Source: an uncultured Verrucomicrobiae bacterium
GTDB lineage: Bacteria > Verrucomicrobiota > Verrucomicrobiia > Chthoniobacterales > Terrimicrobiaceae
Length of the DNA stretch: 64,000 nt
Assembly: GCA_963706955.1 (NCBI GenBank)
Contig: CAVPOC010000013.1
Coordinates: 1-64,000 of the forward strand
Direction: 5' to 3'
A program made the position numbers and the translations under genes. The notes below the pieces were generated by a model. The model saw nothing but the letters and a program-made list of their open reading frames with translations, made no database searches and had not been told where the DNA came from. How positions within the stretch are numbered: position 1 is the stretch's first letter; the number at the start of each line of letters is the position of its first letter. Positions 39,415 through 46,800 of the stretch are shown here, piece by piece.

Positions 39415-40497
39415 TCAGGAGGAGAGACGGACCGCCCGGCGCGTTGCGCCCCAGCTTCCCGGCCGACGCTCGAAACGCCCGGGTATGTAAGCACCACAGT
39501 CTTCGCATCGATGATCGATCAGGTTCCACTCACCCAGCTGGTACCAATCGCGTTCGATGAGAAGTTTACCGCACCCTGGGCAGAAGGTGCTGCTGCCATC
39601 CGGGTCATGGACGTTGCCGGTATAGACATAGTGCAAGCCCTTCGAGAGAGCTATTTGCCGCGCGCGGTCCAACGTTTGTCGTGGAGTGCGCGGCTTGTTG
39701 AGCATTTTGAAATCGGGATGGAAGGCCGTGAAGTGCCACGGCACATCAAGTCCAAGGTTTTCGGCGAACCACTCCGCGGCGCGATGAATCTCCGGGTCGC
39801 TGTCATTCTCATCCGGAATGAGCAGTGTGGTGACTTCAAACCAGACGTCAGTTTCCTTGAGAAATTTCAGCGTCTCGAGCACCGGTGCGAGGCTGGCGAA
39901 GCAAAGTCGGTGGTAAAAATCCTCTGAGAAGGCTTTGAGATCCACATTCGCGGCGTCCATGTGCTGGTAGAAGTCGATACGAGCTTCGGGGGTGATATAA
40001 CCTGCGGTGACGGCGACCGTTCTGACGCCCTGCTCACGGCACGCTTGCGCGACGTCGATCGCGTATTCAGCAAAAATGACAGGGTCGTTGTAGGTAAATG
40101 CGACCGATCGGCAGCCATGCCTCCGAGCTTCACGGGCGATCTCTTCTGGGGAGGCGGTGTCGGCCAACTTATCCCATTCGCGCGCTTTGCTGATGTCCCA
40201 GTTCTGACAAAACCGGCAGCCGAGATTGCAGCCGGCTGTGCCAAAGGAGAGCACGCTGGTTCCGGGCAGAAAATGGTTAAGTGGTTTTTTCTCGATGGGA
40301 TCGATGCAGAACCCGCTGCTGCGGCCATAGGTAGTCAGGACAATTTGGTTATCCAAACGCTTTCGAACAAAGCAGAAACCACGCTGGCCTTCGTTCAGCT
40401 TGCAAAAACGCGGACAAAGCTGGCATTCCAAGCGTCCGTCAGGAAGGGGATGCCACCATCGACCGGGATAGTTGGATTCAGTCACAGATTTGGCCAT
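39415..40497 (-). CDS. amrS: AmmeMemoRadiSam system radical SAM enzyme
   Basis: CQLCPRFC..GQRGFCFVR, DPIEKKPLNHF, GCNLGCRFCQNWDIS, YTGNVHD. Confidence 0.95.
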   Translation of the reverse strand: MAKSVTESNYPGRWWHPLPDGRLECQLCPRFCKLNEGQRGFCFVRKRLDNQIVLTTYGRSSGFCIDPIEKKPLNHFLPGTSVLSFGTAGCNLGCRFCQNWDISKAREWDKLADTASPEEIAREARRHGCRSVAFTYNDPVIFAEYAIDVAQACREQGVRTVAVTAGYITPEARIDFYQHMDAANVDLKAFSEDFYHRLCFASLAPVLETLKFLKETDVWFEVTTLLIPDENDSDPEIHRAAEWFAENLGLDVPWHFTAFHPDFKMLNKPRTPRQTLDRARQIALSKGLHYVYTGNVHDPDGSSTFCPGCGKLLIERDWYQLGEWNLIDHRCEDCGAYIPGRFERRPGSWGATRRAVRLSS

Positions 40498-41341
40498 CTT
40501 TGTCTAACCTTGGAAGCTTGATCGTTCTGGCCCGAGACAATATAGCCACGCTGTAGCCGACGCCAAACGGCCCTTCGTAGCTAAGGAGCTCACCCCCGGC
40601 TGCGGAAAACCGGAGGGCGGCGAGAACGACAAGCAACGGCGCAATTACATCTTGCCCCGCCGAGGTCTCTAGGTGGGGATCGAGCTGCAAAAGGTCGCGG
40701 TATGCGCCCCGCTTCAAGACATCCACGAGCCAGCAGTCAAATTCCCGTCCGCGCGGGTCGTAGCCGAGTGGGGCGCCGATCGTCAGCCGATGGCTCATGT
40801 CTCCACTGGCGATCAGAGCAACTCGGCGGCTCGTGGATGCTGCAGCTTCGGCAATCGTTTCGCCAAGTGCGATGAGAGTTTTCCGGTCCGCGGAGTTTAC
40901 AGCCAGGACGGTAGTTGGGCGATTCCAACCTGCTTCCGCAATAAACCAAAGAGGCACGGTCGCTCCATGGTCGAGCGAGGATTCCGTGATGGAAGCGATG
41001 TCCAGTCCGCGGCGAGTGCACAGAGTTGCGACTATGTCAGCAAGCATTGCGTCGGCGGGTAGATCGATGGTCCGGTGCGGAACGCGAAACGCCCGGAGCG
41101 ATCCCCGCAGACGCTCGCCGCGCCAGATACCTACCGGTTTAGACATGCACGGCGAATGCGGAGATATTACGACCAGGGTATCAGCAGCTGCGGCGATGAT
41201 TGATCGCGCGGCTTTACGCATCGCGGAGAGAGTCGTGGCGATGTCGTCGTGGCGAGGGCCGCCGACGCCGGGAATTAGGATAGGCGCGTGTGGCAGAAGA
41301 GCTCCACAGACTACACTACCGGCAAGAGCAGAATTACTCAC
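40478..41341 (-). CDS. MEMO/LigB-like (class III extradiol dioxygenase fold) AmmeMemoRadiSam-associated protein
   Basis: LLPHAPILIP, VISPH, LDHG, IASGDMSHRL, SYEGPFGVGY. Confidence 0.85.
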   Translation of the reverse strand: MSNSALAGSVVCGALLPHAPILIPGVGGPRHDDIATTLSAMRKAARSIIAAAADTLVVISPHSPCMSKPVGIWRGERLRGSLRAFRVPHRTIDLPADAMLADIVATLCTRRGLDIASITESSLDHGATVPLWFIAEAGWNRPTTVLAVNSADRKTLIALGETIAEAAASTSRRVALIASGDMSHRLTIGAPLGYDPRGREFDCWLVDVLKRGAYRDLLQLDPHLETSAGQDVIAPLLVVLAALRFSAAGGELLSYEGPFGVGYSVAILSRARTIKLPRLDKDGQICD

Positions 41342-41992: not shown

Positions 41993-43249
41993 CTATCTCG
42001 GGTCCGCGACGCGTCCAATAAAGAGGCAAGCTCCGCTTGGGCGATGCTGAATGGCAAAGAGGAATGGCCGGTCGACGCGAACCTCGACAGGTTTCGGTTT
42101 GTCCAGGTGGGCGGTGGCCCGCATCATGACAACGGCAGTCGCGGCGGCTGCTTCTGTTCCCTTCTCATCAATCTCGACGAAGGTTTTGTGAAAAACGTTG
42201 GAGATGTAGAGATAGTCATTCGCTCGCCGCGGCGCTATCCCGTTGAAGTTTGCGCTTCCTTGCGGGACGTCAAAGGCGCTTTCCATGCCAAGCGCTTCGA
42301 AGGTTTTTCTCAACGCGAAGAGAGGCGGCTCCAGCCTCCATTTGGGCAAATAAAGAAGAATTTCCTCAGGCTTCAGACGCGCGCATTCCGCCAGCAGATC
42401 CGGAGTCAATTTGCTTTCGAGTTTTGGGAGTCCCACCGCGGTGTCTGGCAAGAGCACGAGAAACTGGAGATCGCCACCTGTGTACGGAAGTGCGACGGCA
42501 ACAAACCCGTCATGCTTAGCGTAACCCAAGGCATCCTGGCGTCTCATCGTCGGCACATCCGCACTTGAACCGTCGGCAAAATGAAATGCGGCTGGGACAG
42601 TCTCGTTCTGTTTGAATTCCTCTTTCCAGGGAGCTTTGAGATAGACCGCATTGGCGAGCACCAGACGTGTGTCCTTGTTGAGCGCATTCGGTGGGATCAA
42701 ATCGCGGATTCGTTCCCTCGTCTGTTCGGCGATCCAGCTGTTAATGTGCTTGGTGGCGCCGGCAGAATCGCTGATGAAATCGAGGGCTTCGAGTGGCGAG
42801 TCCAACGTCTTCTTGAGCAGCTCGAGGTAGGCAGGTCGAAAATCGTATCCCCGTTGTCCGAATAGCCTGTTCGCAACCGTCAATGTAATCGGCTCGCTTG
42901 GCCCACCGGCTTTCTTAGACTCGGCGGCGATCTTTGCCGTCCGCTGAGCCATTTCATCGAGTTCGTCCTGGAGCCGGGCAAAGTCTCTCACGATATCCGG
43001 ATCGCTGGGCGGATAGTGAAGCACCCGGGCCATTTGCTGCCGGGTGTCCCCCTCAGCGCCGGCATAAGTCATCACAAGAGCGAGTTGAATCGAGTAGGGG
43101 GAAAAGGCTGTGTTCTCCTGGGGCGGCGCGGCGTGAGCAAGCAGATCGAGCGCCAGATTGTTCACCGCGCGAGCAGCGGTGGTCGACGGATCGACTGCCG
43201 AGAGGCAAGAAAGCGGCAGCAAGAGGGCGGCGACAATTTTGCTGTTCAT
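41993..43249 (-). CDS. Serpin (serine protease inhibitor family), secreted
   Basis: AFSPYSI, INSWIAEQT, LANAVYLKAPW, hinge EKGTEAAAAT, DRPFLFAI; signal peptide. Confidence 0.95.
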   Translation of the reverse strand: MNSKIVAALLLPLSCLSAVDPSTTAARAVNNLALDLLAHAAPPQENTAFSPYSIQLALVMTYAGAEGDTRQQMARVLHYPPSDPDIVRDFARLQDELDEMAQRTAKIAAESKKAGGPSEPITLTVANRLFGQRGYDFRPAYLELLKKTLDSPLEALDFISDSAGATKHINSWIAEQTRERIRDLIPPNALNKDTRLVLANAVYLKAPWKEEFKQNETVPAAFHFADGSSADVPTMRRQDALGYAKHDGFVAVALPYTGGDLQFLVLLPDTAVGLPKLESKLTPDLLAECARLKPEEILLYLPKWRLEPPLFALRKTFEALGMESAFDVPQGSANFNGIAPRRANDYLYISNVFHKTFVEIDEKGTEAAAATAVVMMRATAHLDKPKPVEVRVDRPFLFAIQHRPSGACLFIGRVADPR

Positions 43250-43250
43250 G

Positions 43251-45473
43251 CTAGATCTCCTCGCGCAGGAGCTTCTCAATGGTTTGGGACCAGGCGGCGT
43301 CGAGGTCGGTTAAGGACCACCCGAATGTCTTGCCATCGGCCGAAATCCTTAGCGAGTCGGACTTGGTAACTATCCCCAAACGATGGGCTGGCACGCCGCG
43401 CCACTCGAGGAGCGCCAGCGCTACCGATGCGTTTTGTTTCTTCACAGAAATAATGATCCGCGATTGCGTTTCATTGAAGATCAGCACGTCGGCACGCAAT
43501 CCGGTCTCGCCGAAATCCACCTCGGCTCCATGCGGCTCGGGTCCGCTCAAGCAAGATTCAACCAGGGCGATAGCTAATCCACCTTCAGAACAATCGTGCG
43601 CGCTCTCGACCAGGCCAATCTTTATCAAGGCGCGGACTGCCGCTTGAAGAGCTTTCTCGCGGGCAAAGTCCAGCCGAGGCGGAGGCCCCTCTTTTCGTCC
43701 ATGCACGATCTTAAGATAGTGCGACGCACCCAGCTCATTTCCCAGCTCACCAACAAGCAAAATCACATCCCCGGCTTGCTTGAAAAACTGAGTGGTGATG
43801 TCTTTCGAATTCTCGATCAGCCCCACCATGCCGACCGTTGGCGTAGGATCGATTGTGCCCGCAGGGCTCTCGTTGTAGAGGCTGACGTTTCCCCCCGTCA
43901 CAGGAATATTGAACTCTCGACAAGCATCGGCCATTCCTTCGACAGCTTCACGCAACTGCAGGAAATTTTCCGGTTTATAGGGGTTTCCGAAATTGAGGTT
44001 GTCGGTGATGGCCAGCGGGACCGCCCCTGAGCACGTCAAATTGCGCGCGGCTTCAGCAACAGCAATTTTCGCCCCTTCTCTCGGGTCCTGCCGGCAATAG
44101 AGGGCGTTGCAGTCCGAGGTTGCGGCGAGAACTTTGTCCGCCTCGCGCACGATGAAGACGGCCGCATCTGAACCTGGTCGCACCGCGCAACCGAGCCGCA
44201 CCATGTGGTCGTACTGTCGCCAGACCCAGCGCTTTGAAGCGATGCTCGGATGGGAAGAGAGTTGGATCAGCGAATCGCGGACGTCCACCTCTTGAACAGA
44301 GGTGAGATCAAGTGGCGGGGGAGGATGTCGTTCCGATGCTTCGCGACGATAAACGGGCGCTTCATCGGCGAGGGCGCGAGCAGGAATTTCAACGACAGTC
44401 TTTCCCTCTTCCTTGACTCGCATGAATCCGTCACCAGTGACGATGCCGATCTGCGCATAAGGCAAGTCCCACTTCTCGAAAATTTCTTTGACTCTGACTT
44501 CCTCACCTTTTTTCACGATGACCAGCATACGTTCCTGGGATTCGCTCAGAAGGATCTCATAGGGCGTCATCCCAGTTTCTCGCTTTGGCACGAGCGAGAG
44601 ATCGATTTCCACGCCGGTTCCGCCGCGACTTGCCGTCTCACAGGTCGAACATGTCAGACCGGCAGCACCCATGTCCTGGATGCCCGCGACGCAGCCGCTC
44701 GCGAGCAATTCAAGGCAGGCCTCGAGAAGTAACTTTTCGCGAAAGGGATCCCCGACCTGGACTGCTGGACGATCTTCTTTCGATTCCTCGGTCAAGTCGC
44801 GGGAGGCAAACGCAGCTCCAGCCAACCCATCGCGTCCGGTCTCCGCCCCAACATAAAACACGGGATTTCCGATTCCCGTGGCGGCGCCGCGGGCGATTTG
44901 GCCGTGGCGCAATATTCCAAGGCAAAAGACATTCACCAGCGGATTGCCGGCATACGATTCATCGAAATAGGTCTCGCCGCCAATCGTAGGGACCCCGATA
45001 CAGTTTCCGTAGTGGGCAATGCCCGCTACGACGCCCGCAAAAAGGTGACGGTGGGCGGGATCTGTGAGCGGACCGAACCGCAGCGAATTCAAACTAAAGA
45101 CCGGCCTTGCACCCATCGTAAAGATGTCGCGAATGATGCCGCCCACCCCCGTGGCGGCTCCCTGAAAGGGTTCAATGGCGCTGGGATGGTTGTGACTTTC
45201 CATTTTGAAAGCCACCGCCCAATCATCGCCGATATCGATCACCCCGGCGTTTTCCTCTCCGGCCCCCACCAGCACCCGATCGCCACGGGTGGGAAATTTT
45301 CGTAGTTCGAGCTTCGAATTCTTGTAGGAACAATGCTCGCTCCACATGACCGAAAACACGCCAAGCTCGGTGAAGTTCGGCTCCCGACCAAGAATTCCGC
45401 AGATCCGTTCATACTCCTCGGGGGTAAGACCGTGCTTGGCGATCACTTCAGGCGTAATGAGTGGATCTGGCAT
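43251..45473 (-). CDS. purL: Phosphoribosylformylglycinamidine synthase subunit PurL
   Basis: [39 protein letters not shown] at 45473. Confidence 0.97.
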
Positions 45474-45478
45474 TTTTT

Positions 45479-45646
45479 TAACCACAGAGGACACAGCTAA
45501 CCACAGAGAACACAGAGGAAAGTCATTAGAGAAATGCACTTCAGGCCGTCTCTGAGCTTAAGACATGTGATCACGGCCCGAGTGACCTGTTTATCAGCAA
45601 ACTCTGTGCCCTCTGTGTTCTCTGTGGTTGGTCTTTGTTGAGGCAT
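45479..45646 (-). mobile_element. Miniature, internally deleted derivative of the GxxExxY cassette (contains 49-aa ORF 45497..45646)
   Basis: Same inverted repeats as the full cassette. The [52 protein letters not shown] keeps three segments of the GxxExxY protein in frame. Confidence 0.75.
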
Positions 45647-45648
45647 TT

Positions 45649-45677
45649 TAACCACAGAGGGCACAGAGAACACAGAG
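45649..45677 (+). repeat. Left terminal repeat of the GxxExxY cassette, (cacagagNN)x3
   Basis: taaccacagagggcacagagaacacagag; inverted partner at 46055-46083. Confidence 0.85.
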
Positions 45678-45682
45678 GAAGG

Positions 45683-46087
45683 TCATAGAGAGATTCGCTT
45701 GAGACCATCTCTAAGCATTGGGACGTTGAAGTTGACAAGGAGGCCTGTCCGCAATCCGGTGAGCTTCAGATATGTGATCACTTGAGCATGGTGAATCGGA
45801 AGCAGTTGGTCGATGGCTTTGACTTCGATCAAAACCTTGTTGTCGACGATCAGATCAGCTCGGAACCCCATCTCGAACCGAATGTTGTGATACACGATGG
45901 GGATCTCCTTTTGAATTTCGACAACATGTCCTCGCGTGCTCAATTCATAGGCGAAACACCTTTCATAGACCGATTCGAGCAGGCCCGGGCCGAGTTCCTT
46001 GTGCACGCAAATCGCTGAGCCGATGATGGCTTCAGTGACCTCTTTATTAAGAAACTCTGTGCCCTCTGTGTTCTCTGTGGTTAGCAT
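45683..46087 (-). CDS. GxxExxY protein (PD-(D/E)XK nuclease superfamily)
   Basis: LGPGLLESVYE, FRADLIV...IEVKA, HHAQVITYLKLTG...GLLVNFN. ATG at 46087; inserted between purQ and purL. Confidence 0.95.
   Translation of the reverse strand: MLTTENTEGTEFLNKEVTEAIIGSAICVHKELGPGLLESVYERCFAYELSTRGHVVEIQKEIPIVYHNIRFEMGFRADLIVDNKVLIEVKAIDQLLPIHHAQVITYLKLTGLRTGLLVNFNVPMLRDGLKRISL
46055..46083 (-). repeat. Right terminal repeat of the GxxExxY cassette; overlaps the first codons (TTENTEGTE)
   Basis: ctctgtgccctctgtgttctctgtggtta. Confidence 0.85.
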
Positions 46088-46089
46088 CG

Positions 46090-46800
46090 TCAGGCGACTT
46101 GGCGCAGAGGGGAGGCGGGCCACTCGAGCATGCTTTGGAAAATGAGCAGGCCGTCGGTGCTACCTAAGAGCGGGTCGCAAGCTCGCTCCGGATGAGGCAT
46201 GAGGCCGCAGACGTTGCGGGCCTCGTTGCAAATTCCAGCGATATTGTCTTTCGAGCCGTTCGGGTTTGCCGCCTCGGTGGTGCGCCCGCGCGCATCGCAG
46301 TAACGGAACAGCACGCGACCTTCACGTTCGAGATCGTGGAGAATGGCATCTTCAGCAAAATAGCAGCCCTCGCCATGCGCAATGGGAAGACGCAGGACGG
46401 TTCCGTTCCATGTGGCATTCGTGAAAGGACTGTTATGTCGCTCGACACGGACATGTATATGCTCGCAAATGAAGTGAAGCCCCCGATTGCGAACCAAAGC
46501 GCCTGGCAAAAGCCCCGACTCGCACAAGATTTGGAAGCCGTTGCAAATGCCGATGACCATCCCGCCGTCGGCAGCAAAGCTTTTTACAGCGCGCATTATT
46601 GGCGAGAAGCGCGCAATAGCACCACAGCGCAGGTAGTCGCCGTAGGAAAATCCGCCCGGCAGCACAACCGCATCGAATCCGGCAAGCGAGGTCTCCTTGT
46701 GCCACACATAGTCCGCGTTGCCGCCGGGAATTGAGTTGAGCGCATGAATACAATCCTGGTCGCAATTAGACCCGGGGAATTGAAGGACTGCGAATTTCAC
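46090..46800 (-). CDS. purQ: Phosphoribosylformylglycinamidine synthase subunit PurQ
   Basis: [31 protein letters not shown]. Confidence 0.97.

Follow-up and report, generated by a model that had tools for sequence, protein, structure and literature searches.

An old GxxExxY gene at the purQ-purL junction and its inverted-repeat arms form one unit with deleted copies at other sites of a Verrucomicrobiae genome

Insertion sequences and MITEs have terminal inverted repeats around one gene, and internally deleted derivatives of them occur. In the intervening sequences of 23S rRNA, a small ORF for a four-helix bundle lies in a long stem formed by the inverted ends. The RAYT genes (TnpA-REP) are long resident and vertically inherited, are flanked by inverted repeats and encode a Y1/HUH transposase, an enzyme that can join strands. 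A further system, Ssn, was described by Chenal et al. (2025, PMC11893778). There, the enzyme is a GIY-YIG nuclease of the cd10448 type, SsnA cuts single-stranded DNA just outside its own repeat, each NTS/SRM repeat forms its own hairpin of 20-50 nt, and the authors note the IS-like layout of the system.

We compared with these systems a cassette found in the window, that is, in the whole stretch of 64,000 nucleotides of DNA that was analysed, in which a gene of the GxxExxY family lies between two inverted-repeat arms. Like Ssn/SRM (PMC11893778), the cassette is a gene for a single-domain nuclease of ~100-130 aa between repeats of its own; many repeats without a gene occur in the genome, and enzyme-repeat pairs are specific to clades. 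Unlike Ssn, the GxxExxY protein has a PD-(D/E)XK fold and gave no GIY-YIG match in Pfam at E values up to 1, each arm is a non-palindromic array of words with a period of 8-10 bp whose only pairing partner is the opposite arm, and the orphans in this genome are internally deleted whole cassettes. A resident enzyme gene and dispersed intergenic paired repeats (at 15 loci of the genome under study) are shared with RAYT/REPIN, but no HUH match was obtained for the GxxExxY protein, and among the ~15 copies no two are near-identical. Terminal inverted repeats and deleted derivatives are shared with insertion sequences and MITEs; unlike these, the cassette showed no transposase family match and no target-site duplication, and its ends are ragged and carry host flank. 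Unlike the 23S rRNA intervening sequences, it sits at a junction of protein genes, its ORF encodes a protein of nuclease fold, and no sign of RNA processing was detected. The best reading of these comparisons is that the cassette may work like Ssn/SRM or RAYT/REP while standing outside both, and outside insertion sequences and MITEs, by the fold of its enzyme, the form of its repeats or the lack of a target duplication.

For the protein family itself (PDDEXK_3, PF13366, TIGR04256), the function is listed as unknown, with the remark "multiple transfers, mixed clades" (PMC3424549), and the entry on the family in that survey makes no mention of flanking repeats or of a mobile unit. A description of GxxExxY genes with flanking repeats was also not found in the open-access articles searched.

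The features of the locus are collected in Table 1. In what follows, G000 is the genome under study, C3, C4, C6, C7 and C13 are its contigs, and other numbers with G denote relatives. The initial annotation had placed a GxxExxY gene between purQ and purL. The flanking genes are indeed purQ and purL, and the ORF itself scored 142.8 bits with TIGR04256 (cut-off, 35) and 140.9 bits with PF13366 (cut-off, 22). The 29-bp imperfect inverted repeats described around it are complementary at 25 of 29 positions, with the two spacer dinucleotides exchanged between the left and the right arm. The arm word pattern matched seven times in the window, compared to 0.02 matches expected, and all seven matches lie at the purQ-purL locus. 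Because the ATG of the gene follows the purQ stop codon by 2 nt, the left arm is read as protein (MLTTENTEGTE), as had been stated for one of the repeats. The other repeat had been placed just past the stop codon; it does begin 5 nt beyond it, but it lies inside a 12-codon ORF that overlaps this stop. Three points were absent from the initial annotation, namely, a tandem deleted copy, this right-arm ORF and 14 further arm loci in the genome. Downstream, the product of the gene that overlaps the purL stop (window positions 41993-43249, minus strand) is presumably a secreted serpin, and we take the next two genes (39415-41341, minus strand) to be an AmmeMemoRadiSam-type radical SAM pair, both judged by eye.

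Table 1. Features of the purQ-purL locus, with positions in the window
Feature	Position	Strand	Remarks
purQ, upstream host gene	46090..46800	-	Stop codon 2 nt before nuclease ATG
GxxExxY gene, 134 aa	45683..46087	-	Predicted catalytic residues E38, D78, E88, K90; QxxxY motif Q102-Y106
Left arm of full cassette	46055..46083	-	Three CACAGAG words, 9-bp period; protein residues 3-11
Right arm of full cassette	45649..45677	-	Inverted copy of left arm
12-codon ORF through right arm	45648..45686	-	Overlaps nuclease stop (ATGA); stops at outer end of arm
Linker between full and short copy, 19 nt	45630..45648	-	Opens with duplicate of purL start
Short tandem copy	45479..45629	-	Both arms and three gene pieces (start, VITYLKL region, end); two internal deletions
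49-codon ORF across short copy	45497..45646	-	Nuclease frame kept by both deletions
purL, downstream host gene	43251..45473	-	ATG at 45473

The GxxExxY protein matched 20,948 clusters at 50% identity (E <=0.001). In 91 aligned sequences, G35, E38 and Y41 of the GxxExxY motif, as well as D78, E88, K90, N119 and F120, were invariant, and Q102 and Y106 were nearly so. We take E38, D78, E88 and K90 to be the E..D..ExK active site and Q102-Y106 to be the QxxxY motif of RecB-type nucleases. A structure model with a pLDDT of 92 showed a PD-(D/E)XK core, prediction from the single sequence having given a pLDDT of only 34. In a Foldseek search with this model, Cas4, phage exonucleases and Hjc ranked first, with no match at E <=0.001, and VIA-align returned Z scores of 8.1-8.3 to restriction-endonuclease-like folds and Cas4, over 91-100 residues and with an rmsd of 2.9-4.3. 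These structure match scores are modest (best Z, 8.3). The two sets of matches thus point to a PD-(D/E)XK fold, and the initial assignment to this fold agrees both with the invariant E..D..ExK residues and with the restriction-endonuclease-like model. No HUH, GIY-YIG or DDE structure was present among the best 50 structural matches listed, a sequence search of the PDB gave no match, and the only Pfam match at E values up to 1 was PDDEXK_3. We know of no strand-joining chemistry for a lone PD-(D/E)XK domain.

The cassette is duplicated at this locus. The short copy was 85% identical to the full copy over 61 nt and has one extra arm unit on the purL side. The 19-nt linker between the two is likely, from its sequence, to be the eroded joint of a tandem duplication. 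The short copy is absent from strain L061, which is 96-97% identical, and the break falls between the two right arms. Two tandem copies at purQ-purL were observed in six genomes of the genus. In G001 and G010, the short copy was closest to the full copy of its own genome (95% and 90%, respectively), and in G000 this was so at the left end (92%) and not at the right. The resemblance of short copies to their own full copy suggests either that duplication took place several times or that conversion acted. The joint in G001 and G010 consists of ~24 nt of the purL start and then ~22 nt of the purQ end, which meet at a common 5-nt microhomology; the duplicated piece thus reaches beyond both arms. 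At position 45492 of the window, contigs of two sequencing runs are without 10 nt, corresponding to the extra arm unit beside purL, which indicates that the number of arm units differs among strains.

The right-arm ORF was also present in G010, G001, G013, G011 and G014. Across the purQ-purL junctions, an ORF ended at most 8 nt from the purL start, overlapped it or was fused to purL in 12 of the 13 non-empty junctions tested, the gap in G000 being 23 nt. We predict that both arms are translated here and that ribosomes are relayed from purQ to purL, and we infer from the ORFs spanning these junctions that selection keeps purL coupled. The left arm is not generally translated; its translation was found at 12 of 47 other loci. 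A translated right arm was rejected as a rule of the family, since an ORF ended at the arm end in only 10 of 38 loci, and ORF starts were not enriched in the right-arm frame (4/23 versus 22/64). The right-arm ORF is thus a trait of this lineage.

We then considered the transcript. The initial annotation had claimed that it could form a long stem-loop, and the predicted fold (z = -7.2) agrees with this. Such a stable predicted stem, together with the strong co-orientation with operons, would suit an RNA-level intervening element. In such an element, pairing of the arms in the mRNA would lead to excision or splicing of the insert, as in the rRNA intervening sequences. We hold this to be very improbable. 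The arm mismatches showed no excess of G-U pairs on the sense strand (57 versus 43; p = 0.19), a result that goes against the RNA-level element proposed at the outset, and some orphans are antisense. Moreover, since ORFs cover both arms at purQ-purL, translation would open the stem. A search against Rfam gave no family at threshold and only sub-threshold miRNA hairpins. No joint that cleanly removes the cassette was detected in the run contigs, the RNA run holding 8% of the words; joints between two arms occurred in the DNA runs too, with other letters in between, and are uninformative on splicing.

In a further step, the history of the cassette at purQ-purL was followed through the genus. Fifteen genomes contained the junction: four with an intact gene, three with a frameshifted or truncated one, five with an arm-bounded remnant, two with an eroded spacer and one, G002, with an empty site (16-nt spacer). 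In the tree of purQ and purL, G002 was nested among carriers (support of 96/89 and 94/93), and its empty site is thus a secondary loss, which can be explained by passive deletion of the hairpin. An empty site in a relative, as called for in the initial annotation, was found, but it does not represent the ancestral state. Beyond the genus, a remnant was present in G019, a hairpin in G039 and a divergent GxxExxY-like gene in G038, and ten genomes showed none of these at purQ-purL. The gene found before purL in G021 groups with this clade (support of 99). All of the closest homologues found (66-99% identity) lie at purQ-purL, so that no intact gene of the subfamily was found at a new site. The intact purQ-purL genes showed dN values of 0.09-0.16 where dS was ~1 or saturated, and purQ was much alike; judged by these substitutions, the GxxExxY gene is under purifying selection. 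Altogether, the states in the genus, the tree, the sites of the homologues and dN/dS argue that the cassette at purQ-purL is old, inherited, selected and often lost. Sequence comparison indicates vertical inheritance across the genus and, probably, across the family. Vertical inheritance at this position had been named beforehand as an argument against the element, and it applies in part, on the evidence of the genus tree and of the closest homologues at the same site.

The arm word was detected at 15 loci of G000, the purQ-purL locus included, and several of the orphans retain gene termini. No near-identical copies, such as recent movement would leave, were seen among these sites; the interiors differ, and each derivative has another deletion. 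Six orphan sites were compared in five relatives. Three were collinear with relatives that are free of arms where G000 has them, namely C7:108 kb (three arm-free relatives viewed), C6:36.8 kb (four) and C4:15 kb (five); we take the C6 junction to lie between smpB and tRNA-Asp. At the other three sites, the arms were also absent from the relatives, but one side differs. The C4 insert takes the place of host spacer sequence. Two orphans in G000 are antisense to both neighbours. Many arm sites that G001, G010 and G013 have in common are empty or eroded in G000, and at least two are shared with G000. It is likely that the cassette spread copies with gene remnants around this genome. The minimal mobile element of the initial annotation thus holds in that gene and arms act as one unit with deleted copies at lineage-specific sites, but the cassette at this locus is vertically inherited, and no target duplication accompanies it.

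Past the C7 copy come ~27 nt that resemble the start of purL. In an anchored test of 17 flanks, this flank scored 28, above every one of 20,000 random flanks, whose maximum was 21, and of 20,000 flanks starting with AAA, whose maximum was 27; C4 gave p = 0.002. In an unanchored test of 105 arms, the C7 flank gave p = 0.0096, which was not significant after multiple testing. With a genus-wide pattern of the purL-start flank, only the C7 copy was found besides the purL sites. Support for carriage of flank thus comes from one strong orphan (C7) and one weak one, and the anchored score, set against the weaker unanchored p value, makes it one good case and not a rule. General carriage of flank was rejected, as none was seen among 52 metagenomic loci.

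Long vertical residence and purifying selection are also what a domesticated host enzyme would show. Such an enzyme would use the arm words as recognition sites for restricting or directing incoming single-stranded DNA or recombination, the spread of arms being a by-product. Housekeeping operons would guarantee its expression, the family is rare on phages and plasmids (0 of 50,697 phage records and 8 of 72,556 plasmid records), and SsnA in Neisseria offers a precedent (PMC11893778). We nonetheless regard this reading as rather unlikely: 11 of the 15 genomes of the genus have a broken purQ-purL gene or none, no GxxExxY match at all was obtained in 10 of 41 relatives, and the orphans descend from whole cassettes and not from free repeats.

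The link between gene and arms was then investigated across the family. From metagenomes, 80 homologue loci were fetched, of which 76 had enough flank, and arms were called at an inverted-repeat score of >=14. By this measure, arms were present at 52 of the 76 loci, compared to 0 of 46 control windows that had been moved 400 nt outward; among 400 mismatched pairs, 37 reached the score. Periodic inverted repeats therefore surround many other GxxExxY genes, as had been proposed, and the opposite expectation, that other GxxExxY genes are without such repeats, is contradicted. The word periods were mostly 8-10, the outer end was conserved, and the A/G letter of the outermost word matched between the arms in 29 of 29 anchored loci. 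The word ending changed 8 times on the protein tree, compared to 20.2 times with shuffled labels (0 of 300 shuffles). Covariation of repeat and protein, which the initial annotation had suggested looking for, was thus recovered in that the word ending follows the protein tree, but no residue among those listed passed a test of independent pairs. The agreement on the tree speaks for co-inheritance and not for recognition, and a code from residue to word was dropped after no alignment column among those listed passed this test.

No target-site duplication was detected in 29 loci, the mean longest flanking direct repeat being 2.66 versus 2.63 after shuffling. TTAA had been a candidate for a target duplication, as it fitted the empty G002 site, but it was rejected because this end belongs to the inverted repeat across 29 loci. 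Pfam gave names to 57 of the 73 flanking ORFs, and all but three of these (54 of 57) were on the strand of the gene. Split operon pairs were common around it (e.g., carA/carB and trpD/trpC, with names inferred from domains), and homologues with arms adjoined dozens of unrelated genes. A phylum search (150 genomes; E 1e-38) gave three distant matches. The recurrence of the same arms around homologues beside dozens of unrelated genes, and the deleted copies elsewhere in G000, largely refute the idea that the gene is an ordinary accessory one, with a flanking hairpin that formed locally and is unrelated to the protein. Vertical inheritance at purQ-purL would be in keeping with this idea, to which we give hardly any credence.

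G000 has a second GxxExxY gene (C3:723805-724224; L279), which is 39% identical, has CRCnGAT arms and lies between genes that we take to be metK-like and ahcY-like; its site is also filled in G007. Dispersed arrays in G000 numbered 16 and 17 for the words of its two GxxExxY genes and 0, 0, 0 and 1 for four other words, which makes this genome a small internal control. Arm arrays were also found in genomes, 98-99% complete, that gave no GxxExxY match (23 in G039, 11 in G036 and 9 in G023), and no gene remnant was seen at 17 of the G039 arm loci. These arrays persisting without the gene or its remnants are what one would expect of a passenger cassette, in which the unit is moved by another enzyme, be it a transposase or a different small nuclease, or by host recombination alone, and GxxExxY is cargo. 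This appears quite unlikely to us, given that no target duplication was detected, that the genes between distant G000 arms do not look transposase-like by eye and that the arm words follow the GxxExxY tree even where the hosts are very different.

The explanation that we favour, and to which we give an about even chance, is that of a selfish cassette. Its enzyme would bind the word arrays and cut outside the paired arms, and host repair would then make ragged insertions, tandem duplicates and deletions. The small PD-(D/E)XK protein would likely bind the arm words and cut just outside the arms, probably on the paired single-stranded form, for which the cutting by SsnA is a precedent. Host repair at microhomologies would likely insert the cassette into intergenic gaps, leaving ragged ends, and the purQ-purL copy may be the donor of the dispersed copies. 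We infer that this spread would depend on the enzyme. Copies in the sense of an operon would be expressed by read-through and survive, and others would decay. The purQ-purL copy is predicted to be harmless because the short ORFs would carry ribosomes across both arms to purL.

More tentatively, and with confidence well short of even, we suggest that the cassette might stand for a class of mobile DNA without transposase, integrase or reverse transcriptase. In this class, a Cas4/RecB-like nuclease of ~130 residues would read the clade word with its 8-10-bp period in its own ends and cut ~25 nt outside, host repair would paste the piece into operon junctions, and tiny ORFs in the arms would hide the insert from translation. 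If such a self-copying class exists, its ~21,000 protein clusters would be among the largest unrecognised families of mobile elements and a source of very small sequence-specific nucleases. An enzyme driving its own copying would be a new route to mobility; one acting like SsnA would constitute a second, unrelated family of small repeat-specific nucleases. The arms are a defined, clade-specific candidate substrate for a very large family of no known function, and a single genus displays the whole life history of the cassette, with intact, duplicated, truncated, hairpin-only and empty sites plus dispersed copies.

Several minor observations were made in the relatives. A stretch of ~51 kb (G041:C3:8402-59000; L086-L088 and L061) was 96-97% identical to C13:10261-61050 of G000 and lies on a contig recorded as from an Alphaproteobacterium. 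The G041 genome has arms at this one site only, and the contig is chimeric, mislabelled or a large transfer. A recent horizontal transfer of the cassette to an Alphaproteobacterium was rejected as an explanation, L061 being 51 kb of near-conspecific DNA, pur genes included. In the purQ-purL spacer of G018 and G003 (L003 and L009), the arm-bounded remnant contains a run of a different 7-base repeat. At the same junction, G013, which the tree places as sister to G018, has a full gene, through regain or through differential loss from an array. Further GxxExxY genes were seen in the pur operon, between purS and purQ in G020 (L048), at purQ-purL in G038 (L026; divergent) and before purL in G021 (L032), and this operon may have been hit repeatedly. 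In G039 (99% complete; L284-L300), many arrays are hairpins of 60-100 nt at gene junctions, and one of its arm sites is filled also in G010 and G013, which belong to another family. Finally, the proteins P0001, P0002, P0004 and P0007 are natural tandem fusions of two GxxExxY domains, of which the second is apparently without the D and ExK residues, a hint of an asymmetric dimer.
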